The notes under the pieces: model-generated
What the model was told of the DNA's origin: nothing
Databases searched by the model: none
Seen by the model: the letters and a program-made list of their open reading frames with translations, nothing else
Assembly (NCBI GenBank): GCA_041665545.1
Contig: JBAYIQ010000005.1
Coordinates: 1-58,197, forward strand
DNA: 58,197 bases
Source: Patescibacteria group bacterium
GTDB lineage: Bacteria; Patescibacteriota; Patescibacteriia; UBA1558; GWA2-36-10
Direction of reading: 5' to 3'
Made by a program: the position numbers and the translations under genes
Part shown: in pieces, positions 14,074 to 33,300 of the stretch
Layout of the letters: every line of letters starts with the position of its first letter
Position numbering within the stretch: position 1 is the stretch's first letter

Positions 14074-14117
14074 ATTTATACAATCCGAGGTAGCTCAGTG
14101 GTAGAGCAGTTGGCTGT

Positions 14118-15498: not shown

Positions 15499-15603
15499 AA
15501 TATATTATTAATGATTAGTAGTCGCTTATCTAGCTTGAGTATAGCGCACATCGATTTATAAAGCTACTAATGTCAATAAGCAGAAATAATTGGCAAACAA
15601 AAA

Positions 15604-15630
15604 ACCCCGCTAAATGCGGAGTCTTATTTT
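15604..15630 (-). terminator. Rho-independent terminator after ORF 15631..16044
   Basis: Minus-strand RNA ctccgc-attta-gcgggg followed by ttttt. Confidence 0.5.
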
Positions 15631-16044: not shown

Positions 16045-16165
16045 GATAATTTATCCTTTAATTTATAAATTGAAACAACAATAGCCACCACTAGACCAAA
16101 GGCAGCCGCCACAATCCTAGCCAGTTCACTCAACTCCCACAGACGTGAATACACTAACAGCAAAG

Positions 16166-16573: not shown

Positions 16574-16627
16574 ATATTTATATTATACCACTGTGAGAAC
16601 AGCTGTAAACTAACACTGTGGATAAAA

Positions 16628-18253
16628 CTACTTAATAATTAATCTTCCCTGATCAAAACTTAGCCACTTGACTGTCCCCTGTCGCAGTGCTGAGAGCAAC
16701 TCTGCTTCTGGCATAAGACGCGCTAGATCTGCGGTATAATTTTGATAATTATAATGCCACAATTCAAAATATACTTGATTGACTGTGATGGAGGTCAAAC
16801 CAGTAACTACAAAACTGCGATCAATGCTTTCCAAAAACCAACCCCGCTCATCAGCGCGCCAACGCAACAAATGTTGATTTACATTATAATTTTTTAGTTG
16901 CACATAAACCGGCAAAGACATAATCTGCGGATGACTGTCCGGGTAATATAACTCCAGGGCTTGCTGTAAATTATTTCTAAACACTTCCGCGCCCTGCAAG
17001 TTATCCGGCAAAGCCACGCTGATTACTTTGGTATCTGGCTCAAGGTGTAAGTCGGCATAACTGGCTACTATCTGCCGACTTAAAGCACCGGCCTTTGACC
17101 AAATTATATTTTTATCATTGATAATCACCATTGAACAAATTGCCATAAAAAATATTATAGCCATTTTTTTGCTAATAGTCAGTTTCAGATCAGCCAACAA
17201 AGAAATAAACCAAATCACAAAAAAAACTGTCGGCAAATACAAATATCTTTCTCCGGCAAATGTCGTGCGATGCAAACCCAAGGGTAAGACTGGCAAGCAG
17301 CTTAAGATCAATAAAAGAAAAAAATAAAGCCGTTGCTTGTTTTTGTAACGCCACAAATAAAATATGTAAAATATCAAAAACAAGACAAAGGCCCCAGCCA
17401 AACCCCAAGAATAATGATACCAAACTTTATAAAAAATGGTTTGAAAATAACCGGCACTTGGCCAAGCTAAAAAAATAATGGCTAAATTTCCTAACCATTC
17501 GTTTATCTTCAAACCCAAACTGGCTTGACCATAATAACCAAACAATTGCCCAGTAGCTTGCCAGCGTAAAATGAAAAAAATAATTAACCAGAAAAAATAA
17601 GGCAATATCTTTTTGCTAAATATTTTATTTTTTAAATATAAATTAATAAAAATAATAGCCAACGGCAGGGTCATGACAATCTCTTTGCAAAGTAACCCCA
17701 AAACAAAAAAAGTAATTGATAAAAATAGAGCTAGACGTTTTTTGGTTTCAGAAAATTTCAAGTAAAATATCAAGGACAATAAATAAAACAAAGTGCCAAA
17801 AAGATGCGGCCAGGCCGCAATCCAAGAAATGGCCTCAACTTGCACTGGCCACAACAGAAAAAACAAGCCACACAAACTAGCCCAATAAGCGGCTCTAGCT
17901 TGATACTGACCTAATAATTTTTTGGCCAAAACATAGACCAACCAAGCATTAGTAGCGTGCAAGAATATGCTAATCGCGTGATACCACTGATAATGCAAGC
18001 CAAAAAATTTCACTGCTATCTTCCAAAAAATAAACAAAAGTGGATTATAAGAGCCACCAAGTTTCAGGCCCTCGTAATTAGTAATAAAAATCGACCAATC
18101 CCAAGACCGACTTTTGGCTAATGACAACCAATGAAAATCGTCACTAACAAAAAAATTGCTCAACACTCTAAAATACAAAAGAAAAACCACTAATAAATAA
18201 CAAAACCAAATAAACATTTGGTTTTGATATAGTTTTAATAACTTGTTGCGCAT
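16628..18253 (-). CDS. Large polytopic membrane protein, possibly a GT-C-fold glycosyltransferase (PMT/ArnT-like)
   Basis: More than 10 predicted helices. A DDFHWL acidic motif sits in the first loop. The C-terminal ~150 aa are soluble. The family assignment is tentative. Confidence 0.4.
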   Translation of the reverse strand: MRNKLLKLYQNQMFIWFCYLLVVFLLYFRVLSNFFVSDDFHWLSLAKSRSWDWSIFITNYEGLKLGGSYNPLLFIFWKIAVKFFGLHYQWYHAISIFLHATNAWLVYVLAKKLLGQYQARAAYWASLCGLFFLLWPVQVEAISWIAAWPHLFGTLFYLLSLIFYLKFSETKKRLALFLSITFFVLGLLCKEIVMTLPLAIIFINLYLKNKIFSKKILPYFFWLIIFFILRWQATGQLFGYYGQASLGLKINEWLGNLAIIFLAWPSAGYFQTIFYKVWYHYSWGLAGAFVLFLIFYIFYLWRYKNKQRLYFFLLLILSCLPVLPLGLHRTTFAGERYLYLPTVFFVIWFISLLADLKLTISKKMAIIFFMAICSMVIINDKNIIWSKAGALSRQIVASYADLHLEPDTKVISVALPDNLQGAEVFRNNLQQALELYYPDSHPQIMSLPVYVQLKNYNVNQHLLRWRADERGWFLESIDRSFVVTGLTSITVNQVYFELWHYNYQNYTADLARLMPEAELLSALRQGTVKWLSFDQGRLIIK

Positions 18254-18254
18254 T

Positions 18255-18713
18255 TTAAAACACTAAAGCTGTAAAAAATATGGTTACTAGAATTTGAAAA
18301 GTAAGTCCAAAGGGCATAGTAAAATCATAACCAATCAAATTGTGCACTTTGACATGTAATCTATTGTACCAGCCCATAAATTTTAGATGCAGATAATCAC
18401 TAGCCATCCAAATCCAATCAGGTATCCAGGAGCCAACCAAGGCGGCTGCCAAAACATATTGATTAAAATCAATCTGGGAAGTCAAAAAAGAAAATATCAA
18501 TATTGCTGAAAAGACAACATCAACCGCGGCAATCTTAAGCTCAAAAATTTTCTGCTCGTGCTCATTTTTTTTGTGATAATCAAAATCACTATCGCCGTGC
18601 GGTAAAAAATCCAAAAAAAAGTGCATAGCAAAACCGAGCAAAAAAGCCAGCCAAGGATTGACCAACCTAGTGGTCAGCCACAAGGCCACAGAAGTATGGG
18701 CCGTCATAAACAT
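18255..18713 (-). CDS. Hypothetical membrane protein (152 aa)
   Basis: Six-frame ORF with His/Asp-containing hydrophobic segments. Confidence 0.4.
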   Translation of the reverse strand: MFMTAHTSVALWLTTRLVNPWLAFLLGFAMHFFLDFLPHGDSDFDYHKKNEHEQKIFELKIAAVDVVFSAILIFSFLTSQIDFNQYVLAAALVGSWIPDWIWMASDYLHLKFMGWYNRLHVKVHNLIGYDFTMPFGLTFQILVTIFFTALVF

Positions 18714-18732
18714 ATATGTAGGTAGCTAATAG

Positions 18733-20031
18733 TTAATAATCTCTAAGTTTGCGCATATCCTCATGCTTTTTGATGCGCTCTAGAGCTTTGGCCTCAATTT
18801 GCCTGATGCGCTCTCTGGTCACTCCAAATTCCTGACCCACCTCTTCCAAGGTGTGCGCCACGCCATCAGTCAAACCAAAGCGCATTTCTAGAATTTTTTG
18901 CTCGCGCGGAGTCAAATCCTGAATAACATGACGAACATGATCGCTTAATAGTTTCATAGCCGCCACGCGATCGGGACTGATATTTTTTTCATCCTCAATA
19001 AAATCACCCAAAGTGCTGTCATCGTCATCATCACCAACCGAAGCTTCTAGAGAAACCGTCTCTTGGGAAATCTTGATAATCTGTCTGATCTTATCAATAT
19101 CCTCGCCCATCTCCACAGCAATCTCCTCAGGTAGTGGATCACGACCCAGTTCTTGCACCAGACGACGCTCAATTTGATTAAAGCGATTGATGGTTTCAAC
19201 CATGTGCACGGGAATGCGAATAGTGCGTGACTGATCAGCCAGAGCGCGAGTGATAGCTTGTCTAATCCACCAAGTAGCATAAGTAGAAAATTTGAAACCC
19301 TTACGATAATCAAATTTTTCTACGGCTCGAAACAGACCAATATTACCCTCTTGAATAAGATCCAATAGAGTCAAAGAACGGCCAGTAAATTTTTTGGCAA
19401 TACTGACTACCAATCTCAAGTTGGACTCAATCAATTTTTTCTTGGCTTCCAAGTCGCCTTTTTCTTTGCGCTTGGCCAGCATCATTTCTTCTTCTTGCAC
19501 TAGTAGTGTCACCTTGCCAATCTCCCGCAAATACATCTGAATAGAGTCAGCGGCAATGTCGGTCAGATCACCACGCTTTTCATCAGCTTGGATACCTGAT
19601 TTGGACACAATGTCCTCGCCCTTGATACCGGAATCCAAAATATTGCCTTCAGTGGAAATTACCTGAATAGCCAAATCTTCTAATTTATCCAAAAATTCTT
19701 CGTACTTACCAATGTAATCTTCCACATCAGTAAAGGTGCGTAAAATTTCCTCTTGAGTAACGAAGCCTCGAGAGTGAGTTTTTTTTAGCAAAGCTTGAAT
19801 AACCTCATCGCTAATCTCAGCTTTGGGGCTTTTTACTTTGACTATTACTTTACTTTTTTTAGTGACTAATTTTTTTGCGGGCTTAGTCTTCTTGAGGCCC
19901 AAATTTTTTTTCGCCGATTTTTTTTTCGGCGTTGCTTTTGCCTTGTGCGGCTTGGGTCTGCTGTGTTTAACAGCAGTTTTGAGTTTTTTATTCAATTTTT
20001 TGTGGCTTTTGGCCTTTTTTACAGTCGTCAT
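18733..20031 (-). CDS. rpoD: RNA polymerase sigma-70 factor RpoD with Lys-rich N-terminal extension
   Basis: Region 2 motifs [37 protein letters not shown]. Region 4 [18 protein letters not shown]. Confidence 0.9.
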
Positions 20032-21818
20032 TAGCGCTGTAGTTTAGTTATTTCCTTATTTAATAAATTAATTTTATGGGTAATTTGGTCTTGAGTTATT
20101 GTGTCATTTTTTAGTTCGGCCTGACGCAATTGCTCAATCAAAAGCTGACGGCGCTCTTGGAATCTGTTGCTTTTCAATCTTTCCAGAGAAACATTGAAAT
20201 TGCTGTCTAGCTCCTGACCCGATAAATCAGCCATGTTTTGCTCAGCTGACATTAGTAGACGAATATACTGCTGTTTGGCCTCGACTTCCAGTTCGGGCCA
20301 ATCAATAAAATTATCTAAATTATGTTGCTTAGTATAATAGATTATTACCTTTCTGTAAAGATCTAGCAAGTCCGCTTCCATCATTTCTGGCTCCAGCTCA
20401 TTGACCAGGCGCTCCAGATAATTGTTTCGAAAAAATACAATTCCTAATAATTCTTCACTCAAAAAACTGACACTTGGTTTTTTGATGGCTATGACTTTCT
20501 TTTCGGGGCGAACATTTTCCAAGAAACTGCTGACTTGCTTGAGATCACTTTGCAAAATATCTAAAGGCAAATGCAACTTGTCAGCCAATAATTGCAAATA
20601 ATGAGATTGTTCAACCGCGCTTTTTAAATATTTTATAATCGGTAATAATTTTTGCACGGCTATTTTTTTGTGATCAGCCCGATTCAAGTCCACACCAGAT
20701 AAAATTCGCTGAAAATAATAATCCATCACTTGTATAGAATCACGCACCAATTTCAGCCATAAATTTTTATCGCTCTTTACTATGTCAGCTGGATCTTGAT
20801 TTTGTGGCAAGACCAAAATTTTCATATTCATTTCTTGAGCCCAGGCCAAAGTAATACTGCGCAAAGCGGCATTGGAGCCAGCTGTGTCACCATCAAAAGC
20901 CAAAATAACATTGTTGGTATAGCGCTTGATCAACTTCAAGTGATCAATGGTTAAAGCTGTGCCAGAAACTGCCACGGTATTAGTAGTGCCAGCTTGCTGA
21001 CTCAAAATCGCGTCAAGATTGCCTTCCACAATAATCAAATAATTTTTTTGCTTGATGGTGGCTTTGGCCAAGTGCCAACCATACAGTATTTTGCTTTTGT
21101 CATAAATATTGGTTTGCGGACTATTGATATACTTGCCACCAAAATCTTCGTCATGATAAACAATACCCTGCAAAGTGCGCGAAGTAAAAGCCACCACTCG
21201 CCCAGCTGTATCAAATATTGGAAACATCAGTCGCTTGCGAAAGCGATCCACGTAGCCACTGCCATCTTTTTTCTTTACTGAAATGCCAGCTTGAAAAATA
21301 TCGGTATCCGAAAATTTCTTGGCTTTCAAATACTGCAGAGCTTCATCCCAAGACTCGGTACTTAAGCCCAGACCCCATTTTTTTATACTGTCCGTAGTCA
21401 AACCCCGAGACAAAAGATAGTCCAAAACTTTGGCGCTGGTTTCATTTTTATCAAAAAGATTGCTCTGATATTTTTCCGCAATCAAATGATTTATTTCAAA
21501 CAAAAGATTAAAATTTTCCTTGGGTAATGATTGATAGCCAGCCAAAGAAACATTGGCTTTCTCGGCCAACAGCTTGATGGCTTCCGAAAAACTCAAACCC
21601 TCATATTCTTGAATAAAAGTAAAAATATCTCCGCCCTTGCCACAGCCAAAACAATGCCAAATTTGCTTTTCCCGAGAAACCATAAAACTGGCGGTCTTTT
21701 CATTATGAAAGGGACAACGCGCTTTGAGGTTGGAGCCAGTCGAATTCAAGGTGATATATGTGGAGATAATGTCGGCTACATCCAACTTGGCTTTTATTTC
21801 TTCAACCGGGTTCTGCAT
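20031..21818 (-). CDS. dnaG: DNA primase DnaG
   Basis: Zinc-binding [11 protein letters not shown]...[10 protein letters not shown]. Toprim region EGNLDAIL...FDGDTAG. Confidence 0.9.
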
Positions 21819-21928
21819 CCCGTTAGAAATTTAAATAATTAAACATATAACTAAAAAAATAAAATTTATCAATAAACCCATTATTTTTTCCACTAAACCT
21901 AGTTTAATGAATTTCTAACGGGATGCAT
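21816..21928. repeat. E2: ~113-bp element with terminal inverted repeats (catcccgttagaaattt ... aatttctaacgggatgcat); left arm overlaps the dnaG ATG, right arm abuts the GC-rich island
   Basis: Shares the 23-nt extension gttagaaatttaaataattaaac with E3. Confidence 0.65.
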
Positions 21929-21962
21929 AAGCTTATATTAGGTGAAATACGATTTTTAGTCA

Positions 21963-21995
21963 AAAAGAAAGGCGCTCGAGAGGGGTTTCTCGAGC
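21963..21995 (-). terminator. Terminator hairpin (11-bp stem ggcgctcgaga/tctcgagcgcc) with T-run on the minus strand
   Basis: Lies directly downstream of island ORF 22028..22444. Confidence 0.55.
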
Positions 21996-22027
21996 GCCGT
22001 GGATTGTTGTCGGCTACTGGCCCGCGC

Positions 22028-22444
22028 CTAGGCGTGGACCTGGTAGACCGAATTGCCCCGAGCCGACTTCCAGCTGTCCGCCGATCCGTCGCGGACCAGC
22101 GCTTCGAGGTTGGACCTCACCAACTGGAACAGAAAGAAGTTCCGCTTCTCCCACCGATAGAGGCGCCGCATGACCATGCCAGCGGTCATGGGATGCCTCG
22201 CCCTCTGCATGAGCACGAGCACGCGCTCGCTCATGGGCTGATCGACCATGATCGGCGTGAACTTGACCTCGATGGCCACACCGTCCAGTTCTCCGACGGC
22301 GAGGATCGACGCCGGACGACGATCGCGCGCCCTGCGGATGAACCTCTCGGCCACGGGGAAGACCTTCCCAGCGAAGATCGCGGGCACAGTGATCGAAAGC
22401 ATGATGATGGCGATGATGAGCACGAAAATCTCGATCGGATTCAT
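22028..22444 (-). CDS. Membrane-anchored hypothetical protein (138 aa) in the GC-rich island
   Basis: GGAGG lies 5 nt before ATG. N-terminal TM helix IEIFVLIIAIIMLSITVPAIFAG followed by an Arg-rich soluble domain. The overlapping plus-strand ORF 21923..22534 was rejected. Confidence 0.55.
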   Translation of the reverse strand: MNPIEIFVLIIAIIMLSITVPAIFAGKVFPVAERFIRRARDRRPASILAVGELDGVAIEVKFTPIMVDQPMSERVLVLMQRARHPMTAGMVMRRLYRWEKRNFFLFQLVRSNLEALVRDGSADSWKSARGNSVYQVHA

Positions 22445-22596
22445 GACGCCTCCAATGGCTTGGGACCAGGAACAGTGACCTATATCACATTCATTGGCCT
22501 TTTATGGCCAAAATGCTTCGAAATTAATGCTTGATGAACTGTAAAACAGTATATCATAGCACAAAAAATAAAAGTTGTCAAGCCACGGTTAAAAAT

Positions 22597-22627
22597 AACC
22601 TTCGAGGTTGCCATAACCTCGAAGGTT
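22597..22627. promoter_or_regulatory. Perfect 13-bp inverted repeat AACCTTCGAGGTT-N5-AACCTCGAAGGTT between divergent island genes
   Basis: Seen directly. It lies ~55 nt upstream of a TTGACA-N16-TAGTAT promoter-like sequence at 22684..22711. Confidence 0.45.
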
Positions 22628-22869
22628 GGCCGTGTCTACTAGTATTGCACTGATTTGTTGAACCCACGCTACAAACACTTGACAAAATATTATTATTATG
22701 ATAGTATAAAATGTTTTGACCAAATAGCAAAAAATTGAGCTTTTGGTTAAACCAAAAGTTCTTTGAAATGTCATACATCACTCGTAAAAACAACTAATAA
22801 GATCGAGTTTTCTGTCCACAAATCCTATGGCCACAGTGTCAGTGCAACCACGTAACGAAAGGAGTTTCG

Positions 22870-23460
22870 ATGGAACACCAGCAGACCTTCTGGCACATGC
22901 TGGGGAACGACGTGGGGATGATGACGTTCGCCGTTCTGGGCTTCATTGGCGGAGTGTTCACTTTGATCACTCTGGCCTTCGGCCACGGCGACCACAACAT
23001 CGACCACGACTTCAGCGCGGGCGACCACGACTTCAGCGCGGGCGACCACGACAACAACGCCGGCCCGAACGTGTTCTCGTTCCGCAACATCATGCTCTTC
23101 GTCACCGGCTTCGGTGGAATCGGCATGCTGGCCAAGTACCATGGCGCAAGCTTCATTGTGAGCAGCCTCTGGGGCGCTTTCTCTGGCTTCATCATGGCAT
23201 TCGTCGGCTACCTGATCTACCGCGCCCTGTACAAGAGCCAGGCGACCTCGCACATCGACAACTGTTCGCTGTGCGGTTCGATCGCTCTGGTCGAACAGGC
23301 CATCGTCGCTAACGGCATGGGTATCATCGTGGCCGGAGGCGAGATTGGCCACCTCGTTCGCCTCCAAGCCAGAACGAAGGAAGGAACCCCGGTCGCAAAC
23401 GGCCGACAGGTCCGCATCCTGAATATCAACGGGACCGAAGCTCTGGTCGAGGCCCTCTAA
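22870..23460 (+). CDS. NfeD-like membrane protein (YqiJ-type: TM region + C-terminal OB-fold)
   Basis: AAGGAG RBS. Hydrophobic N-terminal half with HD repeats. C-terminal domain VANGMGIIVAGGEIGHLVRLQ...GRQVRILNINGTEALV. Lies immediately upstream of an SPFH protein. Confidence 0.7.
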   Translation: MEHQQTFWHMLGNDVGMMTFAVLGFIGGVFTLITLAFGHGDHNIDHDFSAGDHDFSAGDHDNNAGPNVFSFRNIMLFVTGFGGIGMLAKYHGASFIVSSLWGAFSGFIMAFVGYLIYRALYKSQATSHIDNCSLCGSIALVEQAIVANGMGIIVAGGEIGHLVRLQARTKEGTPVANGRQVRILNINGTEALVEAL

Positions 23461-23503
23461 TCCCTGCTCCAACACACCACCGTCTTCCCAAAGGAGTATC
23501 AAG

Positions 23504-25228
23504 ATGGAACAGTCCGCACACTTCATGCAGTACCTGATCCCCGCGATCATCCTGTTCGTGCTGATCGCCTTTCTGGGTGTGATCCGCCTGGCGGCCAAGA
23601 ACTACATCAAGGTGGCCCCGAACGAGGTGGCCATCATCAGCGGCAGCCGTCACAAGACGACGGTCACGCTGCCCGGCAAGGAGAACGAGCCCCCCACTAC
23701 GGTGGTGCGCGGATACAAGCTGGTCACCGGTGGCGCCTTCTTCAAGGTGCCGATCCGCGATCGGGTCGAGATCATGAAGCTCAATCTGATCCAGATCATT
23801 GTCCAGGTCACCAACGTGCCCGCCCTCAACGGCGTGCGCGTGACGGTCAAGGGCATCGCCAACATCAAGATCCTCTCCGACCAGGCCTCCCTGGCTCTGG
23901 CCGTGGAGCGCTTCCTGGGGAACAACCTCAGCGAAGTGGAACGTGTGGCCAATCAGAACCTGGAGTCCAACCTCCGCGCCGTCGTCGGCACGATGACGGT
24001 CGAGGATCTGATCCGGGACCGGGCACAGCTCCAGGCCCAGATCCTCCGGGAAGCGGTCAGCGACATGTCCAAGATGGGTCTCGGTGTGGACCTGATGAAC
24101 GTCCAGGAGATCACGGACGAGAACGGGTACATCGAGGCCCTGGGCATGGCGCGAACCGCCGAGGTCAAGCGCGACGCAACCATCGGCAAAGCCGAGGCCC
24201 AGCGTGACGCCGACATCCGTTCCGCGGAAGCCGGACGGCTGGGCGAGACGGCCAAGGCCGTGGCTGCACAAGCCATCTCGGATGCGCAGAAGGCCAAGGA
24301 TATCCGCGTTGCCGAGAACGAGAGTCTGGTCAAGGCACAGCAGGCCAGGATCCCGATCATTGCGGAGCAGGCTCGAGCCGAGGAACAGAAGGCGCTCAAC
24401 ATCAAGACCGTCGAGGCCGATCGTGCCAAGACCGAAGCCGAGATCGCCCTGCAGCAAGCGGCTCAGCGCCGGCACGAGGCCGAGCTGAACGCAACTACGA
24501 TCATTCGGGCCACGAAGGACAAGGAGGCCCTAGTCATCGCTGCCGAGGCCAAGGCCCTGGCGGCGGAACGGGAAGGCGAAGCCTACCGCATCCAGCACGA
24601 GATGGAAGGCAAAGGTGACCAGGCCAAGCTGACTGCTGTGGCTCAGGGACGCAAGGAAGCGGCGGCGGCTACCCAGACCGAACTGGAAGCCGCGGCTGCC
24701 GGTAAGAAGGCCGGACTGCTGGCTGACGCCGAGGGTGTCAAGCAGAACGGTCTGGCCAGGGCTGCCGGAGTCGAAGCCGTTGGTGTGGCTGAGGCCACGG
24801 CTTCGGCCAAGAAGGCTGAGGCTTACACCCTGCTTGATGCCAAGGGCATCATGCTCATGCTGCTCCAGCTGTCGCCGGACGTCATCAAGGCGCTCGGCGT
24901 GGCTGTCGGCGACGCCATCAAGCCGTCGGCAGATGCCATCGGACAGGGCCTGGGTAACATCAAGGAACTGCGCATGGTGGATCTGGGTGGCGGTTCGGCT
25001 GGCGGGGCTGGCGGGGGCAATGTCCTCAATCAGTTCGTCAACCAGCCCATCCAGACCTTGTATGGCCTGATCGAACGGATGAAGGCCACGGGCATGGCAC
25101 CGGCGTTCATGAAGCTGGCCAAGGAGAAGCTCGGGCTGGATCTCACGGACGTCTTCGCTGGTGCTCCTACCCAGACGACGTCGGACGACACGCACAAGAA
25201 GGGTGGTGATGACACGGCTACGGCTTAG
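23504..25228 (+). CDS. Flotillin-like SPFH/band-7 protein (YqiK-like) with Ala/Glu-rich coiled-coil
   Basis: N-terminal TM helix, SPFH core (KVPIRDRVEIMKLNLIQI...LMNVQEITDENGYIEALG) and an extended EA-rich repeat region. Confidence 0.85.
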   Translation: MEQSAHFMQYLIPAIILFVLIAFLGVIRLAAKNYIKVAPNEVAIISGSRHKTTVTLPGKENEPPTTVVRGYKLVTGGAFFKVPIRDRVEIMKLNLIQIIVQVTNVPALNGVRVTVKGIANIKILSDQASLALAVERFLGNNLSEVERVANQNLESNLRAVVGTMTVEDLIRDRAQLQAQILREAVSDMSKMGLGVDLMNVQEITDENGYIEALGMARTAEVKRDATIGKAEAQRDADIRSAEAGRLGETAKAVAAQAISDAQKAKDIRVAENESLVKAQQARIPIIAEQARAEEQKALNIKTVEADRAKTEAEIALQQAAQRRHEAELNATTIIRATKDKEALVIAAEAKALAAEREGEAYRIQHEMEGKGDQAKLTAVAQGRKEAAAATQTELEAAAAGKKAGLLADAEGVKQNGLARAAGVEAVGVAEATASAKKAEAYTLLDAKGIMLMLLQLSPDVIKALGVAVGDAIKPSADAIGQGLGNIKELRMVDLGGGSAGGAGGGNVLNQFVNQPIQTLYGLIERMKATGMAPAFMKLAKEKLGLDLTDVFAGAPTQTTSDDTHKKGGDDTATA

Positions 25229-25320
25229 TAGAACTGACTGTCTCTGACGGTCTGAACTCTGAGCCAAAGCTTTCATAGAGGGGAGGCGGTGCTACACAGC
25301 ACCGCCTCCCACTCCAAAAC

Positions 25321-25359
25321 AAGAGGGATCTTTCGTAACCCCTCTTTTTTTATTTTTTA
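25321..25359 (+). terminator. Rho-independent terminator after the flotillin gene
   Basis: Stem aagaggg/ccctctt followed by tttttatttttt. A separate 13-bp-stem hairpin at 25281..25310 has no T-run. Confidence 0.6.
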
Positions 25360-25405
25360 ACCAAAATAAAAAGGGTACTCCCTAATTACACTGTCAACAC
25401 AAAAA

Positions 25406-25456
25406 GACCCTGCACCGGAGCCACGTAAGTGGCGACTGGTACAGGGTCGATTTTTT
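25406..25456. terminator. Bidirectional terminator (nested hairpin gaccctg...cagggtc) flanked by A- and T-runs
   Basis: Serves plus-strand island transcripts and minus-strand ORF 25463..26422. Confidence 0.55.
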
Positions 25457-25462
25457 ATACTT

Positions 25463-26422
25463 TTATTTTACTGGCACTGGTGGCGCCACTTGAACTGGCG
25501 AACCATCCTTATTGAAGGCCTGCACTTTTTGAGTCAAACACTGATAGCCAATACCATGTGGCCAGCGCGTGTCATAATAATAAGCCATGTCTTTGTTTTG
25601 AGTGTTGGCTGAAGCGTCAGTCAAAAAAGTAGTGCACAATTCATACTCCCGATCGCCTTTGACCTGGTATTTAAAAATTTCTTGAGTCTTGGGGTTTTTT
25701 AATAAATCATCACTAATATATGTGTACTCTGCTTTTAGGGCGTTAAAATCCGCTGGTAATTTTTTATATGTTTGATAATAATTATTTAAATCCTGATCAA
25801 TCTGATAAAAATTATTAGTAACCCTTTGATCAATCTGTCTGTTTCTAGCTACTTGAGGAGATTCTACTATAAACAGCGAAGCCACAAAAGTGACAATAAT
25901 CACTGCCAGTGAAGCAAAAAAGTATATTTTTATAACACTGTCTTTATAGCCAGCAGTTTTTTCCCGTCTAATATCATAAAAATAAAAGGAAAAAACAATG
26001 CCCGAAATAACCAGAGTGGTTAAAGATTTGAGAATAATTTGAGTAGTCAAAGCGCCGTTTAAAAAATTGACCAGAATAGCAATCAGAGAGCCAATCATTA
26101 CTAAAAAGGCAATGAAGATGATTAAATAAGTCAACCATTTGCGCACGCCTGATTCTTTGTCTAGCTCGCCTTTGTACAAACTGCCATAAATAAACTTATT
26201 GCAAAAATAATAAGTTGGTGTGGCAATCACTAGTGAGGCGATAGCAAACTTTAAGATATCCGAAGAAAAAGCCGCATTGTTTTGACTCAAAATATCAACA
26301 ATATATTTGTTGATCAATTGAAAAATTATTTGTCCAACGTTGACGGACACGAAGCCCAAAGCCACCAACGCTAACAAATAAAGAAACGCAAACTTCGCTG
26401 AATTGTTTTTTGTGTTATCCAT
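25463..26422 (-). CDS. Hypothetical membrane protein (319 aa; ~5 TM plus C-terminal soluble domain)
   Basis: Six-frame ORF with hydrophobicity pattern. Confidence 0.5.
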   Translation of the reverse strand: MDNTKNNSAKFAFLYLLALVALGFVSVNVGQIIFQLINKYIVDILSQNNAAFSSDILKFAIASLVIATPTYYFCNKFIYGSLYKGELDKESGVRKWLTYLIIFIAFLVMIGSLIAILVNFLNGALTTQIILKSLTTLVISGIVFSFYFYDIRREKTAGYKDSVIKIYFFASLAVIIVTFVASLFIVESPQVARNRQIDQRVTNNFYQIDQDLNNYYQTYKKLPADFNALKAEYTYISDDLLKNPKTQEIFKYQVKGDREYELCTTFLTDASANTQNKDMAYYYDTRWPHGIGYQCLTQKVQAFNKDGSPVQVAPPVPVK

Positions 26423-26481
26423 ATTTTTTGGTTAATTATTAATAAAGTTAAAAAATCATAAAAATAAATCGCAAAAAAATA

Positions 26482-27219
26482 TTAATCAGGTTGAGCGACT
26501 CCCCCTAAATTAGCATGTAAATTCATAAAGTACTCGTGTACAACAATAATAGACACAAATACAGCAAAACGAAATATAAGATCAAATATTGAAAAATTAA
26601 CACCCGAAATATATATTGATAAAAATGATGTGCTCGGCCACAACCAATTATTATAAACAACTAACACCGCTTGCATAATAATAAATACTAAGGAAAAAAA
26701 AGCAGCAGTCGATAAAGATTGCTTTAACAAGTCTTTTTGCCAAGAAATAATAATTGCCGCTGGCAATATAAAAAAAGGAACAAAAATAAGATAACTGCTA
26801 AACTTAAAAAAATATGGATACGCAAAGCACAGGGCTAAAACAGTAATCAATAAAAAAATGTAAAGGGAAAATAAATAGTGAAAACGATCCGAAATATCAC
26901 CAACCTGCTCGTGTTTCACAAAATATTTATAAAAAGAAATGACCCATAAAACTGTAAAAAAAGTGAAAAGTAAATTTGTCATGGCCAAAGGAGCCGCTGG
27001 AATCCGCCAATCACCACTGCTAACAAAACGACTAGCCAGTGCTATCAAGGGAGTAATGAGCGCTGTTACAATCAAGGAAAACAAAAAAACCTTGGCGCGA
27101 GCAATGCTTAGCCAAAAAAAATTTACTAATGTCGGTGGTACAAGCACCAAAGCAACCGCCATGTAATAATTGAGATTAAAAAAGACAATGCCTATGGCCG
27201 CCACAATGGTATAGGCCAT
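26482..27219 (-). CDS. Hypothetical polytopic membrane protein (245 aa)
   Basis: Six-frame ORF with many hydrophobic helices. Confidence 0.45.
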   Translation of the reverse strand: MAYTIVAAIGIVFFNLNYYMAVALVLVPPTLVNFFWLSIARAKVFLFSLIVTALITPLIALASRFVSSGDWRIPAAPLAMTNLLFTFFTVLWVISFYKYFVKHEQVGDISDRFHYLFSLYIFLLITVLALCFAYPYFFKFSSYLIFVPFFILPAAIIISWQKDLLKQSLSTAAFFSLVFIIMQAVLVVYNNWLWPSTSFLSIYISGVNFSIFDLIFRFAVFVSIIVVHEYFMNLHANLGGVAQPD

Positions 27220-27292
27220 TAAACAACTAATTTTTACCGTTGCTTTATTAATGTTGATAATATTATTGAAAATTATTAATAAAATTTATTGA

Positions 27293-27805
27293 TCAAGAAA
27301 CTACACCACTCAGCAATCCTTTCAAAAAAACTGAATCAAAAATCGCGCTTGTTATATATATATTATAAATATAGTGCAAGAGCACGGCCCCCATCAGGCC
27401 AAAAACAACATATTTTCTTTTTTCTAACCCAGACATTACCATCAATAAAACAGTAGAAAAATGCATGGGTAGAGGCCATAAAAATCTGGCTAAAAAAAGA
27501 TCATAATCACCCGCTCTAATAAATCCTTCCAAATAAAAAATATTTTCCCAAATACCAAAAATTAGGCCAAAGAAAAAACCCATTAACATTTTTCGGTTCG
27601 AACCAACAAGCTTTAAAATAAAAAAATAAACCACCAAGACCTTGCCTAATTCCTCAAAAACTATTGACCACGAAGGTGCCATTTTCCCCAAAAAAATCAA
27701 CAAAAGCGGTAAAAATGTAGCAAAGATAATTATCAACAATAACGAATTTTTATCGCCATCACCCAGTATTCCTTCTTTGGCTACTTGATCATTTTTCATT
27801 ACCAA
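27293..27805 (-). CDS. PrsW-like intramembrane protease family protein
   Basis: EELGK (EExxK) motif, ENIFY, and conserved His in TM segments. Paralogous to 28854..29312. Confidence 0.5.
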   Translation of the reverse strand: MVMKNDQVAKEGILGDGDKNSLLLIIIFATFLPLLLIFLGKMAPSWSIVFEELGKVLVVYFFILKLVGSNRKMLMGFFFGLIFGIWENIFYLEGFIRAGDYDLFLARFLWPLPMHFSTVLLMVMSGLEKRKYVVFGLMGAVLLHYIYNIYITSAIFDSVFLKGLLSGVVS

Positions 27806-27826
27806 GTTTTTTTTAATAATAATATA

Positions 27827-28642
27827 TTATAGTATAGCACCAGGAGAAAAAACTACATACAAATATAGGCCAATAAATAAAATAGCATAAGCCAAGATAA
27901 TGGCCACATAGACCCAAGGTTTATAACCTTTGTGTTCCAGCTTGCTGTGGCCTTTGATTTTGAGTAGATTATTATATAACTGATAAGTATAGATGATAAT
28001 AAAAATACCAAAAAAGAAATCAAAAATAGAACTAACAAAATCTTGCAGTGCTTGATTTTTTATTATACTCATCAGCAAGCTGAATAAAAATAAAGGTACA
28101 AATAGGGCCAACAAACGCAAAGCCACTGCGCTCCAATAGCCCGTCACTAGCTCTTTGCTTCTTTTTACAGCTGTATAGCCGTGATAATTTTCCAAGAAAA
28201 ATACCCACATTACTAGTGAATAAAATATCAGAAAAATAAATCCGGGAACTACCAATAATATCAGCCACAACATAAGCATCAAGCCCGCCCAAAATAAAGT
28301 CAAGGAATAATTCCAAAAATATTTACCAGCTGATCGCCAAACATCTTTGACACTAGTTATATCTTTACTAACCATCAAATAAACGGCGATATTGATGCGA
28401 AAAGAAATATATAAAAGCGGTATGGCCATCAATAATGCTAGTAAAGTATTGATCACTGTAAAGTTAGGGTCATTTCTAAAAATAACAGCAATTATTGCTA
28501 ACAAAATAGCGACTAATAAGGATGGAAGAAGACCAAGCAAGGCCATTCGAATTATTGTCTTTATCTTTTCTTTGTACATTGCCCAAGAGCTTATAAACAG
28601 CTCATTGACTGGCAACAATGGTGTCATTTTTTCTGCGTCCAT
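27827..28642 (-). CDS. Hypothetical polytopic membrane protein (271 aa)
   Basis: Six-frame ORF. Confidence 0.45.
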   Translation of the reverse strand: MDAEKMTPLLPVNELFISSWAMYKEKIKTIIRMALLGLLPSLLVAILLAIIAVIFRNDPNFTVINTLLALLMAIPLLYISFRINIAVYLMVSKDITSVKDVWRSAGKYFWNYSLTLFWAGLMLMLWLILLVVPGFIFLIFYSLVMWVFFLENYHGYTAVKRSKELVTGYWSAVALRLLALFVPLFLFSLLMSIIKNQALQDFVSSIFDFFFGIFIIIYTYQLYNNLLKIKGHSKLEHKGYKPWVYVAIILAYAILFIGLYLYVVFSPGAIL

Positions 28643-28647
28643 AAAAT

Positions 28648-28824
28648 TTATTTATTATTGCAAGGTGTTGTTGGCTGAGAAGCACTCGGATTGCCGTGTT
28701 TAACCCACTGGCCTTTGGTACAAAGCCAAGTGTCCTCATCGCCACGCAACCACATCAAACCAGCTAACAAAAAAGCGGCCACTAAAAAAATGATAATAAT
28801 GATAAAAAATTTTGGTGGTTTCAT
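28648..28824 (-). CDS. Possible small secreted/membrane protein (58 aa), not in the ORF table
   Basis: Read by hand: MKPPKFFIIIIIFLVAAFLLAGLMWLRGDEDTWLCTKGQWVKHGNPSASQPTTPCNNK. Confidence 0.3.
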   Translation of the reverse strand: MKPPKFFIIIIIFLVAAFLLAGLMWLRGDEDTWLCTKGQWVKHGNPSASQPTTPCNNK

Positions 28825-28853
28825 ATAATGTTAATTAAATTTATTTGACCAAA

Positions 28854-29312
28854 TTAAAGCCAAAAAACAAAATAATTATTATAAAAAAAGTGAATCGCCA
28901 TAGTAATTATCATTGCTATTATAATCCAACGCCTATCGCGCCAAGCCAGCAATAACATAAAATAAACCGTCAGCAGATGCATCAAAGTCGGCCAGAAAAA
29001 ACGCCATAAATATAAACTAACAGAATTTTGTTGGGCAAAGTTTAAAAAATAAAAAATGTTTTCGGACATGGCAAAAACTAAAACAAAAACTAAAGCGCCC
29101 CAAACTCTCTGTCCTCCTTGACCAAATTTTAATACCATATAAACCACTACCAAACCCTTAGCGACTTCTTCAATTAATGCTGGATAAGGTAATAGTATCT
29201 TTTCAACAAACAATAATAACAAGGGTAATAATAAGCCAATCAATGCTAAAAAAGTAAAATAACGACTATTGTCTAGGGGCTCTGTTACTAACTTTTTTGT
29301 TACTGTCACCAT
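28854..29312 (-). CDS. PrsW-like intramembrane protease family protein
   Basis: IEEVAKG (EExxK) motif, ENIFYFLNF, and His in the last TM. Confidence 0.5.
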   Translation of the reverse strand: MVTVTKKLVTEPLDNSRYFTFLALIGLLLPLLLLFVEKILLPYPALIEEVAKGLVVVYMVLKFGQGGQRVWGALVFVLVFAMSENIFYFLNFAQQNSVSLYLWRFFWPTLMHLLTVYFMLLLAWRDRRWIIIAMIITMAIHFFYNNYFVFWL

Positions 29313-29317
29313 GCTTA

Positions 29318-30313
29318 TTAATTACTCTGACTTTTGTTATTGACAAAATTATAAGTGTCCTTAGAAATTAAAGAAATCAAATCTTTGGCTTTGGCTAACT
29401 CAATATTGGAAGTCATGACGCAAATAAAATATGGATTAACCGCATGATAAACAACGCCACAGTCGTGCAAAGCATCCAATCTTTCCCCATATTTATGAGC
29501 TATCTGGACTTCCCAGGGAATCTTGGCTGACAACAAACTTTCTGCTCTAGTATCGGTTGTTAAAGACAATAAATATTCTGAATTATCTGGTGTTAAAAAA
29601 GTGGAATAATATAAAGACTTAAATAATCGGCTATACTCGCGCGGAGTAACATATTGATTGGAATTTTCTGAGATATATGGATTATTGATACCGACATGAG
29701 TAAAGACGGCGTTTAACTCCTCTGGTTGCAATTGCCTTTTCAAAATATTTTTAGCCGTGTTGTCAGATACCTTGAGCATCAGTTTCAACAACTCACTGAC
29801 TGTATAAGATTCATTAACAGTGAAGCGCTCTGGCACGCCAGCGCTTTTGTCAATATCTTCCGCCTTAACCGGCAACTTGTCATCCAAGTTAAGTTGTTTG
29901 TTCTCAATTTTTTTCATGACAGACATGGCAATGGGAATCTTCAATAAGCTAGCTGGAAAAAAATTATCTTTTTCATTGATACCCATCCACGAGCCAGTGT
30001 TGATATCTTGAATATAAATACCTAATTTTTGACTGGGACTCAAAATACTTAAATTTTTCTCCAACTGACTTTTTAAGTCAACAAAATGCAACAATATTTT
30101 ATCTGTCTCTATATTACTATCGATTGGCACCAGCTCAATTTTTTTACTAAGCAAACTATGACTAGCTAACCATTCAGTATTTTTTTTATCTAGTTCAGTT
30201 ATTTTGCTACCACTTTTATAATTGAAAAAAAATAAAATATTAGCTAAAAAAGATAACACCAAAAGCGCAATCAATATGTAAATTTTCTTAACCATAATTT
30301 TTTTCATTAACAA
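29318..30313 (-). CDS. Class A beta-lactamase-like serine hydrolase (secreted)
   Basis: SxxK (SLLK), SDN (SDNTAKN) and K(T/Y)G-like (HKYGE) motifs. Signal/TM at the N-terminus. The start lies 6 nt after the giant-gene stop. Confidence 0.65.
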   Translation of the reverse strand: MLMKKIMVKKIYILIALLVLSFLANILFFFNYKSGSKITELDKKNTEWLASHSLLSKKIELVPIDSNIETDKILLHFVDLKSQLEKNLSILSPSQKLGIYIQDINTGSWMGINEKDNFFPASLLKIPIAMSVMKKIENKQLNLDDKLPVKAEDIDKSAGVPERFTVNESYTVSELLKLMLKVSDNTAKNILKRQLQPEELNAVFTHVGINNPYISENSNQYVTPREYSRLFKSLYYSTFLTPDNSEYLLSLTTDTRAESLLSAKIPWEVQIAHKYGERLDALHDCGVVYHAVNPYFICVMTSNIELAKAKDLISLISKDTYNFVNNKSQSN

Positions 30314-33300
30314 CTATTTTAGTTCTTCAGCATATTCAGCAAACACCCAGCCAACTTTATTTTCAGTTAAAGCTATTTGATACCAGCCAAATTTTTCTAA
30401 ACCCTGAGCCGCCACTTGACTAAGCAAGTCGTATTTTTCTCCGGCACTTACTTTGGCCACAACGGCTGTTTCTTTGGAAGCTTCCTGCCTGACATTGAGC
30501 CAACCAGTTGGTGTATCTTTAATAATAACTTGTTTCTTCATTAAAATATCTTCCGTAGCGGGTACTGTGCTACTAGAAGTGGAACTGGCACTTTCTGAAC
30601 CAAAACTAAAAGCCATATTATTATCAGCTAAAACAGGAATATTATCAAGCTTATTGACGTCAGTTTCAGAGGCGACGGTCACATTGTTGGCTGACCTAAG
30701 TTCGTCAGTCTTAATATATTTTGATAAATTTTGTCTAATATTAGCCAAAATACCATATTTATCAACTAACAAATACAAAACTATAAAAATCAAAACAAAA
30801 GTAATAAGCCAGACTTTATTTTGTCTGATATTTTTGAACAAGCGAGTAAAAAATTGCTTAATATAGATTAAAAAACTTGTCGATACTTTGGCCTTTGCTT
30901 CGACGCTAGCTATATTGGCTGGACTATTTTTGCTAACTGCTGCTTTCTTCTTTTTTCTGCGCCCACCAGAGGAATTCATTTTTTCCATATCAAGCGGCTT
31001 GCCAGTCAAAATATGCGACTGCAAGGCCATCTGACCATTGGCTATGGCTACTTGATGCTTCCACATGGAGAACAAGATGGTCACTAACAAACCAAAGCCG
31101 GTGACAAAAGCAATAATGATCCCCCACACCGAAATGGTCTGTATACCACCCAAGGCTCCCAAAAATCCGCGAGAGGCATCAGCTTGGCTCAATAGTGACT
31201 TCAATTCATCCAATTCTGTCTGCACACTAATAAAACTTTCTTTATTTTCTCGATAAGTCATAATTTTATCTTGCGGGGAGGCAGTATTTTCTTTTTGAGT
31301 ACGCAGAATTTTTTCTACTTTGCTATCAATATCATTTTTGAGTAATAAAGCTTGAGAAGAAAGTTGATTTTTTTCTAATTTCTTATAAAAATCATTGGCC
31401 TGCGTCTTGGCTATAGTCAAATCATTTTCAGCAATCTGCCAAATATCTCGCATTTTAATAAATTTTTTGACCGAAGCACCCGGAGCCAATTCAATCTCGC
31501 CAGCCGCATACAAAGTATCTAGCTGAACATCGTACTGAATATTGAAACCGCCATCATCCATAATGTGCTCTACTTTAGCTTCCTTTGGAAGATAAATCTT
31601 GAATGGCACTTTTTGAGCAGTCTTGGCTGGATTGGAAAGCATGATGTTCAAATCCACTGAACCAGAGGTGTACCAAGTGCTGACTATCGGAGCCGTGGCC
31701 TGCTGAACCACTTGACGCTGAACAGTGGTGACGGCTTTGTAGTCGGCTAATTTATTACGCACATATTTTATATCCGTCATATTCTCCTGCGAGATGGACA
31801 GTATTGAACTCAAAGTATCGCTATCCAGACGGCCCAGTTTGGTATTGATGTTCTGAATGGAGTTGGAGATGGTACCCATGGCTGTGAACATCTCCTCGGG
31901 CTTCACATTGTAAACATTGGTATTGTTGGTGGTACTACTGCCGGAGCCAACTTCAATATTATCAATACTTGTTTCTAGAGTAGCGATGCTAGCTTCAATA
32001 TTATCTAGTTGAGTTTTGATTAAAGCAATATCTGCCTTGATCAAAGTCACGTCGTCCTTGATGCCAGCCACATCGGACTGGATGGTGCTGATCTTAGTCA
32101 CTGGTACGGCTAATGTTTTTAAAATAGTAAAAGCGTCACTGCTAGCTGGCGCAAAGGGAAGATCTGGTTCTACTGTAATGGCTTTGGTTGTACCATTATA
32201 ATCATCTATTCTTCTGGCTACACCACTGTTTTGGCCAGAAGTAAAAGTCAGCAGTGCGTGAGCATATAAATCATTGACAGCGCTGGTAAGATTTGTGCCA
32301 AATAAAGAAATTGTCGGGCTAACTTCGGCTGTAGAAACAGCGGAGCGAATGGCAATCAAATCATTGGACAACAAATCAACTGAGTTACTCACCGCGTCTA
32401 TACTATTACCCAGTGTCGTTTCAGTGGACTGCAAATCAGATAATGTGGCTAGCGACCCACTGTCTAAATCCGCTCCTGATAAATAACGACCACTGTAGGC
32501 CCAAATAGAAGCCGCGTCCAAAGTAGCAGTATTTGAAGTCTGGGCCAAAATAGTAAAGGTGTCAGCATTGGCAGGAGCCAGAGCCAAAGCAGGATCGACC
32601 GTGATCGCCTTGGTGGTGCCATTGTAGCCCATAATCCTTCTCGCCTGACCAATATTTAAACCCGAGGTGAACAATAAGATATTATTTTTATAAAAATCAT
32701 TAGTGGCATTAGTCAAGGCAGTAGCAAATACTGTGGTTGATGGCGCCAAATCATTCACTGAAGTTTCCGAAACAATCAAGGCATTGATAATTTTATCTAG
32801 CTTAGTGCTGTTGACGCTAATAGCACTAGCCAAAACTGTTTCCGTATCTTGAATATCTGACAAAGTAGCTAAAGAACCAGAGTCTAAAGTGGCACCTGAT
32901 AAATACCTGTCGCCATAGGTCCAGATAGCGGCCGCATCAACTGCCGAGTTGGCTGTCTGCGCTAAAATAGTAAAGGTATCGGCATTAACCGGAGCTAAAG
33001 ATAAAGCTGGCGAAACAGTAACCTGTTTGCTAGCCCCGACATAATCGGTAATACGACGCGCTTGACCAGCGTTGACGCCAGAAGTAAAAACCAAGACACC
33101 GTTGTTATAAAAATCATTACTGTTGCTGGTCAAAGTTGTAATAAATTGATTATCTGAAGCGCCGGCATCATTGACCACTTTTTGTTCCACTATTAAATTA
33201 TTAATCAGCGTATTTAATTGTCCGCTCAAAGTACTTTCGGTAGATTGTATATTTGACAAAGTGGCTAAAGATCCGGAGTCTAAAGCGGCGCCTGACAAAT

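Follow-up and report, generated by a model that had tools for sequence, protein, structure and literature searches.

A GC-rich NfeD-flotillin cassette and a separate 138-residue gene recur as distinct units in AT-rich Patescibacteria genomes

In Bacillus subtilis (yuaF-floT, within yuaFGI) and Escherichia coli (yqiJ-yqiK), a short gene for an NfeD-like protein with multiple transmembrane (TM) segments precedes a gene for a flotillin of approximately 500 to 570 amino acids (aa), which combines an SPFH domain with a hydrophobic anchor at the N terminus and a C-terminal half rich in Ala and Glu. Genes of deviant base composition are known from 2 other settings: horizontally acquired islets, which in the concept of Lawrence and Ochman undergo amelioration, and phage morons, independent promoter-gene-terminator units of deviant GC content inserted between genes. 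Here, we describe a 58,197-nucleotide stretch of Patescibacteria DNA (contig JBAYIQ010000005.1, assembly GCA_041665545.1; hereafter, the window), in which the gap between dnaG and a gene for a DUF5671 protein contains 3 GC-rich genes, namely, a gene for an orphan protein of 138 aa (p138) and, on the opposite strand, genes for an NfeD-like protein and a flotillin-type SPFH protein (Table 1). Comparison with related loci resolves these genes into 2 independent units, of which the NfeD-flotillin pair is a recurrent cassette, and their GC-rich composition and Shine-Dalgarno-led translation signals, persisting in a genome that is otherwise devoid of such signals, are the part most worth following.

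Between approximately 21,950 and 25,350, the GC content is 0.55 to 0.66, compared to 0.30 to 0.43 in both flanks (300-nt windows); in the rest of the window, it never exceeds 0.47 at 1-kb resolution. The GC step reported in an earlier note on this DNA is thus real, and a step exists at its left edge, but the rise does not begin at 21926, directly after the repeat element E2, as the note had it; it begins at approximately 21,971, at the terminator of the p138 gene, positions 21,924 to 21,970 being the AT-rich dnaG promoter (GC 0.25). Inside the segment lies an AT-rich dip (22,500 to 22,800; GC 0.32), and the noncoding parts of both units are AT-rich (GC 0.32 to 0.39). The GC content at third codon positions (GC3) is 0.86 in the p138 gene, 0.83 to 0.84 in the NfeD gene, and 0.81 in the flotillin gene, compared to 0.354 (standard deviation 0.061, n = 18) in native genes; the resulting z of 7.6 to 8.2 corresponds to the atypical composition of a genomic island. 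Because the anomaly resides mainly at third codon positions, amino acid content does not explain the GC excess. All 3 genes carry GGAGG or AGGAG 7 to 12 nt before the ATG, whereas the 5-mer Shine-Dalgarno (SD) core is found in none of 16 native neighbor genes (starts as called by the Joint Genome Institute [JGI]); counting 2 GC-rich minigenes located elsewhere in the window, the core is present in 5/5 versus 0/16 genes (Fisher P = 5e-5). The segment is, as had been claimed, compositionally alien, with expression signals (SD motifs and long leaders) unlike those of the native genes. Several native gene starts in the 13700-30400 region have a −10-like box 6 to 13 nt before the ATG, and in the relatives' dnaG, a TAATAT box ends 6 nt before the ATG. 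Together, the SD-less native starts and the close −10-like boxes suggest that leaderless or very short-leader mRNAs are widespread in this organism. Approximately half of Parcubacteria have been reported to be devoid of an anti-SD motif (PMC9297842).

Among the related loci fetched for comparison (numbered with the prefix L), the dnaG-DUF5671 gap exists in 3 states. The window and L007 contain p138 together with NfeD-flotillin; 5 loci of close relatives (L069 to L073) contain a p138 homologue (p127/128) between DUF5671 and dnaG, with NfeD-flotillin absent; and L065 has the order dnaG, NfeD-flotillin, MGMT (methyltransferase), DUF5671, with p138 absent. What had been described as a single island is thus composed of 2 independent units with separate histories and distributions, and the earlier remark that the 138-aa gene is not a standard partner of the NfeD-flotillin pair is borne out by its independent distribution. 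Where p127/128 stands alone, it forms an approximately 400-bp GC islet with a GC3 of 0.85 to 0.91. In L069 and L071, 138 bp occupy the place of the cassette and the spacer between the 2 promoters. Homology to the L065 cassette starts precisely at the −35 hexamer, position 22679, and L065 and L067 are homologous from this hexamer to the end of the flotillin gene (81% DNA identity), with unrelated flanks. A recently acquired island would be expected to be absent from close relatives or to have a close donor, yet same-locus copies are present in L007 and L065 and p138 in the 5 close-relative loci. The same units, with the same composition and at the same locus, in L007, L065, and L069 to L073 contradict the recent acquisition proposed in the earlier note, which had itself named this observation as one that would speak against it.

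Each unit is a complete expression module comprising a consensus sigma-70 promoter with an extended −10 element, a long and conserved AT-rich leader, an SD motif, a GC3-rich coding sequence, and one or more intrinsic terminators. The TTGACA-TAGTAT promoter recognized earlier upstream of the NfeD gene stands in sequence and place, with a spacer of 17 rather than 16 nt. The first approximately 75 nt of the leader that follows, including a hairpin, CTTTTGGTT-AAACCAAAAG (22740-22758), are conserved even at different loci; the leader is kept in the window and in L005, L007, L065, and L067, and L064 has a more weakly conserved version. Rfam searches with the leaders produced no credible match (best E = 2), and RNAalifold analysis of 6 NfeD leaders yielded weak structure (−6.7 kcal/mol, covariation term 0); in view of these results, we refer to the sequences as conserved leaders and make no claim of a structured RNA. 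Exact-match scans with 2 conserved leader motifs produced 14 and 3 matches without similarity beyond the motif, which we attribute to chance. An SD motif precedes both genes of the NfeD-flotillin unit, which ends with a conserved motif of the 3′ untranslated region (UTR) and 2 hairpins; tandem 3′ hairpins with different stem sequences are found in L005, L065, and L066, the structure being kept. Of the 3 terminators counted earlier after the flotillin gene, these 2 belong to the cassette; the third (25,400-25,450) is the native terminator of DUF5671 and is also present in relatives without the cassette. In the p138 unit, the promoter and the approximately 100-nt leader, with its hairpin TTGGCC-ATAAAA-GGCCAA, are near-invariant in the window, L007, L069, and L071, and the terminator is kept in the latter 3 loci, with compensatory changes in the stem.

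Table 1. Coordinates of the features of the window discussed in the text.
Feature	Position	Strand	Description
Site of both units		.	dnaG-DUF5671 gap, with the 3 genes listed below
DNA missing from relatives without NfeD-flotillin	22568-25353	+	cassette plus inter-promoter spacer; blastn breakpoints
p138 intrinsic terminator	21971-21998	−	left boundary of the GC-rich segment; stem of 11 pairs, then a T-run
p138 gene	22028-22444	−	138 aa, orphan protein
p138 promoter and leader region	22445-22581	−	GC 0.39; GGAGG SD
p138 promoter	22581-22553	−	TTGACA-17-TATGAT with TG extension
NfeD-flotillin promoter	22679-22707	+	TTGACA-17-TAGTAT with TG; kept in every cassette copy
NfeD leader	22708-22869	+	approximately 160 nt, GC 0.32, AAAGGAG SD at the 3′ end
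NfeD-like gene	22870-23460	+	196 aa, YuaF/YqiJ-type
Tandem repeat in NfeD gene	23001-23063	+	21-nt unit, 2 perfect and 1 diverged copies
Flotillin-type SPFH gene	23504-25228	+	574 aa
3′ UTR hairpin	25280-25310	+	conserved; read from sequence
Terminator hairpin and T-run	25322-25352	+	stem 25322-25345; read from sequence
Element E2	21819-21923	.	MITE-like inverted repeat; 105-bp insertion at the dnaG start codon, TGCA duplication
Palindrome	22597-22627	.	perfect 13-bp stem, 5-nt loop, between the 2 promoters
83-aa Cys/His-rich minigene	287-538	−	GC3 0.71 (z approximately 6), GAGGAGG SD, TTGACA promoter-like site
81-aa predicted membrane protein minigene	57742-57987	+	GC3 0.74-0.75, GGGAGG SD

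Outside the dnaG-DUF5671 gap, NfeD-flotillin is located between groES and a Wzy_C gene in L005 and L006, adjoins a Wzy_C gene 42% identical to that of L005 in L066 to L068, and lies between a tRNA gene and dnaJ in L062 and L064, the only copy adjoining a tRNA gene. Altogether, the clade is represented by about 6 distinct instances in an AT-rich context among the loci fetched. L005 and L006 are identical over the approximately 21.7 kb fetched, the only difference being an indel of 33 bp in the flotillin gene, within a 33-nt repeat region (approximately 11198-11205), and were not treated as an independent pair because they represent the same population. In L065, the flotillin gene (1948-3692) is split into overlapping open reading frames (ORFs) of 325 and 270 aa, which reflects either an assembly error or a frameshift, in which case the gene may be a pseudogene. 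All flotillins 61 to 89% identical to that of the window for which the context could be recovered are encoded in AT-rich contigs; the cassette copies have a GC content of 0.55 to 0.68 against a background of 0.25 to 0.45, and their GC3 is 0.74 to 0.92 in most cases (0.56 in the L064 NfeD gene), compared to 0.28 to 0.43 in host genes. At more distant flotillin loci, the GC content of the gene is within a few points of the flanks, and flotillin genes of Saccharibacteria and other low-GC genomes are approximately 5 points above theirs.

In the phylogeny of the cassettes, which was built by neighbor joining only, those of AT-rich genomes form one clade. Its nearest outgroups are P0015, the context of which was not recovered, followed by a gene of Fischerbacteria with a GC content of 0.44 and one located on a 51% GC contig; the next clade includes a phage-like contig of 72% GC. 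This contig (L074; Logan SRR14194072_6952) carries an NfeD-flotillin pair at 1008-3190 with a GC3 of 0.97 to 0.98 and a flotillin 54% identical to that of the window, as well as a PurZ-type adenylosuccinate synthetase (phrog_1211, 6e-73), an HNH endonuclease, and codirectional overlapping ORFs. Among 5.8 billion protein clusters, none of the relatives found in a GC-rich context exceeded 54% identity, and the search for a donor by protein similarity, as suggested in the earlier note, identified none. No relatives of the flotillin or of p138 were found in IMG/VR, and a phage vector was rejected on these grounds. Neither an integrase or similar mobility gene in or beside the segment nor flanking direct repeats, target duplications, or attachment (att) sites were found. 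A GC-rich palindromic motif, GACCCGCCGGGT, occurs near the slots (8 matches versus 1 expected) and is also present in the empty slot of L069 to L073; it was considered as a recombination site and discarded, as it resembles ordinary terminator hairpins.

The flotillin matches PF01145 with 79.8 bits (3e-22; cutoff 23.6; residues 36-233), which places it among SPFH proteins, and in comparisons with the PDB it is closest to eukaryotic Flotillin-1/2 (approximately 1e-35 to 2e-36), with QmcA (1e-4) and PH stomatin (6e-4) far behind, so that it is nearer to flotillins than to stomatin, HflK/C, or QmcA. Its score against the NCBIfam FloT model (NF058507; alignment 15-503 of 574) is 194 bits, below the equivalog cutoff of 700, and by sequence we class it as a flotillin-type protein rather than a FloT equivalog. 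Its N-terminal part includes a hydrophobic stretch, LIPAIILFVLIAFLGVIRLAA, and its C-terminal half is rich in Ala and Glu. In the NfeD-like protein, 3 hydrophobic segments and a loop of acidic His/Asp repeats are accompanied by a putative NfeD domain at the C terminus, the PF01957 score of which is 16.6 bits, under the gathering threshold of 29.1; 6 of 8 homologues match PF01957 weakly (best 1.6e-4). A profile built from the 8 homologues retrieves the soluble domain of YuaF (2K14; E = 1.9e-4), with other NfeD-like domains scoring more weakly; the N-terminal part spans the membrane, a co-oriented SPFH gene starts 43 nt downstream, and at most of the loci examined, the flotillin gene is directly preceded by one for an NfeD homologue. 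The recognition of NfeD and flotillin as a standard pair is supported. The DHDFSAG units specified by the 21-nt tandem repeat of the NfeD gene fall in the loop that follows the first TM segment, and the number and sequence of the units vary among relatives.

By analogy with characterized members of the families, the function of the pair would be ordinary, that of a YuaF/FloT-type membrane scaffold: the flotillin would oligomerize at the inner membrane face by means of a hydrophobic hairpin at its N terminus and a coiled-coil region rich in Ala and Glu, the NfeD partner would bind it through a C-terminal oligonucleotide/oligosaccharide-binding (OB)-fold domain, and the 2 proteins would form a membrane-microdomain scaffold. 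PADLOC matched no defense-system model to the 3 proteins of the segment or to the 2 minigene products, and a role in defense was dropped for this reason.

The p138 protein consists of an N-terminal TM helix, a disordered linker, and a C-terminal domain with the H-H-H-beta-beta order of the winged-helix fold. It has no Pfam match and no sequence-level membership in any winged-helix family; among 1.84 billion proteins, its family is limited to 2 representative clusters, with no relatives found outside its Patescibacteria lineage. Its overall dN/dS (ratio of nonsynonymous to synonymous substitutions per site) of 0.4 to 0.9 indicates less constraint than in NfeD and flotillin. The protein occurs both with and without NfeD-flotillin and hence is no subunit of this system; its probable role is that of a membrane-tethered DNA-binding regulator. 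No conserved operator was identified near the gene. An antisense ORF of 203 aa in the ENA annotation (21923-22534, plus strand) was rejected because its first codon positions fall on the third codon positions of p138 and because it would yield a product rich in D, E, R, H, and G, as is typical when GC-rich DNA is read in antisense, and p138 was preferred for its homologues and confident fold.

The genome is of the Parcubacteria type, and the GroEL of the host is closest to those of genomes named Parcubacteria, Nomurabacteria, and Komeilibacteria (80 to 82% identity). Synonymous divergence (dS) of dnaG groups the loci as (window,(L007,(L071,L069))), with host dS of 0.2 to 0.6; between L065 and the window, dnaG and DUF5671 are synonymously saturated (dS 1.9 to 2.1). 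The slot shared with L065 at this divergence, together with the distantly related Wzy_C neighbors of L005 and L066, indicates old residence of the cassettes. NfeD and flotillin have evolved under purifying selection (dN/dS 0.19 to 0.36; 0.19 for NfeD and 0.22 for flotillin), and the cassettes of the window and L007 differ by a dS of 0.2 to 0.27 and a dN of 0.05 to 0.11. At 4-fold degenerate sites, deep cassette pairs show 0.46 to 0.82 G↔C differences per GC↔AT difference, compared to 0.06 in host genes; the many G↔C changes indicate a GC-preserving regime during the divergence of the deep pairs. Between the window and L007, 50 GC↔AT differences were observed versus 100 expected from the divergence of the flanks and the host spectrum (P = 2e-8), and 9 G↔C differences versus 10.5 expected; on the L007 branch, synonymous changes amount to 23 GC-to-AT and 17 AT-to-GC, at a GC3 of 0.9. 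The NfeD protein of the window is 76% identical to that of L005 and 55% to that of L065, even though L065 shares the locus. Such conflicts between the cassette and host trees, along with the unrelated flanks of L065 and L067, indicate that the units are exchanged or relocated as promoter-to-terminator blocks.

We favor, with moderate confidence, an old, foreign-derived cassette family resident in Patescibacteria, in some lineages of which selection slows the erosion of GC-rich codons. Both units would descend from a GC-rich, SD-using source and would be old residents of these genomes, and the cassettes would move, or be exchanged, between a small number of intergenic slots as blocks running from promoter to terminator; with no integrase or repeats found, recombination, perhaps after DNA uptake, would be the simplest route. 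The GC-rich codons would erode more slowly than the host mutation spectrum predicts, owing to selection against GC-to-AT synonymous changes that is relaxed in some lineages. Of the foreign origin first proposed, a GC-rich, SD-using ultimate source is plausible, and the recent import is what the relatives contradict.

Several observations weigh against this reading. On the branches leading to the window, L065, and L067, polarized counts run strongly from GC to AT (31:5, 23:5, and 40:5, respectively), although such counts are skewed in this direction by a GC-rich, partly saturated, and distant outgroup and are given little weight, and the closest pair, L065 and L067, has a host-like spectrum. 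The AT-ward branches imply plain amelioration in several lineages, where selection is not needed. That the window and L007 differ by fewer GC↔AT changes than expected could reflect a cassette ancestor younger than the flanks, that is, a recombinational sweep, the G↔C count of 9 being too small to tell a sweep from selection. Furthermore, p138 alleles are incongruent with the host tree, with L071 and L069 being only 57% identical in p138 at a host dS of 0.2, which indicates that exchange with an outside allele pool does occur. Finally, the NfeD-flotillin pair of the 72% GC phage-like contig shows that GC-rich vectors exist.

The allele exchange is what the main rival predicts, namely, that the cassette lineages diverged in GC-rich genomes and that each Patescibacteria lineage acquired its copy separately and fairly recently from an unsampled GC-rich reservoir (the GC-rich host organism of the symbiont, or a GC-rich phage or plasmid), followed by neutral amelioration. 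Repeated import of this kind, which we consider possible but rather unlikely, accounts for the mixed substitution signals equally well, since the deep pairs are GC-preserving and the recent branches host-like and AT-biased; the spread of GC3 among the copies, from 0.56 to 0.92, fits unequal residence times, and the conflicts of NfeD and p138 with the host phylogeny and the existence of the PurZ-encoding phage-like contig point in the same direction. Yet, despite about 6 instances in an AT-rich context, such a reservoir has left no trace above 54% identity in the protein clusters and none in IMG/VR, and p138 has no relatives elsewhere. All copies share an AT-rich promoter and leader in the style of the p138 promoter, which the reservoir would have to carry as well and which suggests that the common ancestor already resided in an AT-rich genome; the neighbors shared across deep host divergence likewise argue for long residence.

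The resident-family reading can be extended, tentatively and as a conjecture that we regard as rather unlikely: genomes of the Parcubacteria type, with native genes that are AT-rich, SD-less, and apparently leaderless or short-leadered, would keep a small pool of cassettes (NfeD-flotillin, p138, and possibly the genes for the 83-aa and 81-aa proteins) with a GC3 of approximately 0.8 to 0.9 held by selection, translated through SD motifs, and exchanged at a few slots, with the conserved AT-rich promoter/leader and the terminators serving as recombination arms. If so, a second codon and initiation regime would operate within one genome. The 2 GC3-rich, SD-led minigenes hint at a class of genes rather than a single case. 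The 83-aa minigene is flanked by terminator hairpins, including a perfect 21-bp palindrome (640-684), and matches no Pfam or PADLOC model; the 81-aa minigene has GACCCGCCGGGT palindromes downstream and occupies the groES-adjacent slot in which L005 carries NfeD-flotillin.

The minigenes would also fit a purely native origin, in which Patescibacteria genes evolved GC-rich codons and SD motifs in place under selection, as would the lineage restriction of p138 and the native style of the AT-rich promoters and leaders. We consider this improbable: no mechanism is known that would raise the GC3 of a few genes from 0.35 to 0.9, net decay toward AT is seen in several lineages, the flotillin genes of Saccharibacteria and other low-GC genomes rise only slightly above their flanks, and the SD and long-leader architecture is unlike that of all native neighbors. 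Even less probable is the scenario of the earlier note, a single recent import of a 3.4-kb island from a high-GC, SD-using donor, possibly linked to E2. The atypical composition and SD use, the absence of NfeD-flotillin from the close relatives L069 to L073, and the strong GC-to-AT decay on the window branch are in line with it, but L007 and L065 share the locus, units, and composition, the 2 units have separate distributions, E2 is a later insertion confined to this genome, no donor was found, and the divergence between the cassettes of the window and L007 bespeaks long separate evolution.

As for a contig in which an assembler joined GC-rich DNA of another organism to Patescibacteria DNA, the alternative raised in the earlier note, the sharp composition steps and the break of one contig inside the segment would be in its favor, but such a chimera is very unlikely. 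The window corresponds to JGI contig Ga0376277_0002854, to which the ENA MEGAHIT and Logan contigs are 100% identical over the stretches fetched; the JGI and MEGAHIT contigs cross both junctions identically, and the Logan contig, which begins inside the 21-nt tandem repeat of the NfeD gene, crosses the right one. Because the 3 assemblies may share reads, the junctions in other samples are the stronger argument: the same GC-rich genes adjoin AT-rich genes of Patescibacteria in no fewer than 10 distinct contigs from other samples, and the alignments of empty and filled sites are clean.

Element E2, which resembles a miniature inverted-repeat transposable element (MITE), is missing in L007, L069, L071, and L065, that is, in all relatives carrying the units, and a link between E2 and the segment is not supported; as E2 is found in this genome only, it was rejected as an integration scar. 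Two further copies are located in the window (approximately 12084-12199 and 46070-46197); the 3 copies are approximately 105 to 125 bp long, with terminal inverted repeats (T/G)CATCCCGTTAGAAATT, and all abut an ATG of a minus-strand gene, namely, dnaG, the ORF 45606-46079, and the ORF 11332-12123 at its in-frame ATG 12087. The dnaG copy regenerates the start codon and parts dnaG from its original promoter, which is near-leaderless in relatives. The palindrome between the divergent promoters has the position and the 13 pairs reported, but it is an insertion specific to this genome, missing in L007 and unrelated to the corresponding sequence of L069 and L071, and, not being conserved, does not qualify as an operator; Rfam returned only weak, chance-level matches (best E = 2, mir-2059).

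Elsewhere in the window, a group I intron (14473-14696, plus strand; Rfam, 81 bits) is followed by a sequence resembling a tRNA T-arm (14713-14735) and thus probably splits a tRNA gene; GIY-YIG ORFs are located just upstream (13504-13985), and a tRNA gene cluster spans 12543-14070. Repeats of approximately 74 to 84 nt lie beside tRNA genes (12604-12698, 13204-13302, and 47665-47748), with 96% identity in the direct pair and 76 to 81% in inverted orientation. A giant ORF (approximately 30300-42500, minus strand; approximately 4,073 to 4,143 aa) has faint or weak Pfam matches only (SH3_3) and internal repeats of approximately 400 nt with 72 to 74% identity at 32100-34700. Upstream of groES, an inverted repeat resembling the controlling inverted repeat of chaperone expression (CIRCE), TTAGCACTC-N9-GAGTGCTAA, is present in the window (57530-57570) and in L005 (approximately 9040-9070), and its sequence suggests HrcA-type heat-shock control of the native chaperonin operon.

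A sharp GC island with expression signals of foreign appearance would usually be put down to recent import or to a binning error; the present one is conserved and recurs in several lineages. If its slow erosion reflects selection, the locus offers a test case for the course of amelioration, for SD-led translation in nearly SD-less Parcubacteria, and for gene flow involving episymbionts. Patescibacteria are thought to scavenge lipids, and a membrane-organizing scaffold under purifying selection provides a lead on how they manage their membranes; our literature search found no paper on flotillin in Patescibacteria.

Compared to yuaF-floT and yqiJ-yqiK, the NfeD-flotillin pair of the window has the same gene order and flotillin layout, and in a profile comparison its NfeD C-terminal domain resembles the soluble domain of YuaF; the 2 genes are also paired at most of the more distant loci fetched. 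Unlike yuaFGI, however, the operon has no yuaI-like third gene, and it differs from both systems in the variable DHDFSAG repeat of the NfeD loop, in scores below the FloT equivalog cutoff and the Pfam gathering threshold for NfeD, and in standing out by composition, with a conserved leader of its own, from the reduced Patescibacteria genome that carries it. The p138 protein lies outside all families of winged-helix regulators to which it was compared by sequence (Fur/PerR, ArsR, MarR, and the DNA-binding domains of BlaI/MecI), has a TM helix and disordered linker where a dimerization or sensor domain would be expected, and belongs to a family limited to one Patescibacteria lineage. Like ameliorating islets, the units are accessory, atypical in composition and codon usage, patchily distributed among close relatives, and subject to GC-to-AT decay in several lineages; unlike them, they have no integrase, tRNA-linked att site, or flanking direct repeat at the window locus, their anomaly is limited to coding sequence, with AT-rich and conserved promoters and leaders, and their composition persists across relatives with synonymously saturated flanks. 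With morons, they share a sigma-70 promoter and an intrinsic terminator of their own, a deviant composition, and an intergenic site, but they reside among chromosomal housekeeping genes (dnaG/rpoD and groES) rather than in a prophage, no relatives of theirs were found in IMG/VR, and the sole phage-like relative, 54% identical, is compositionally matched to its 72% GC contig.

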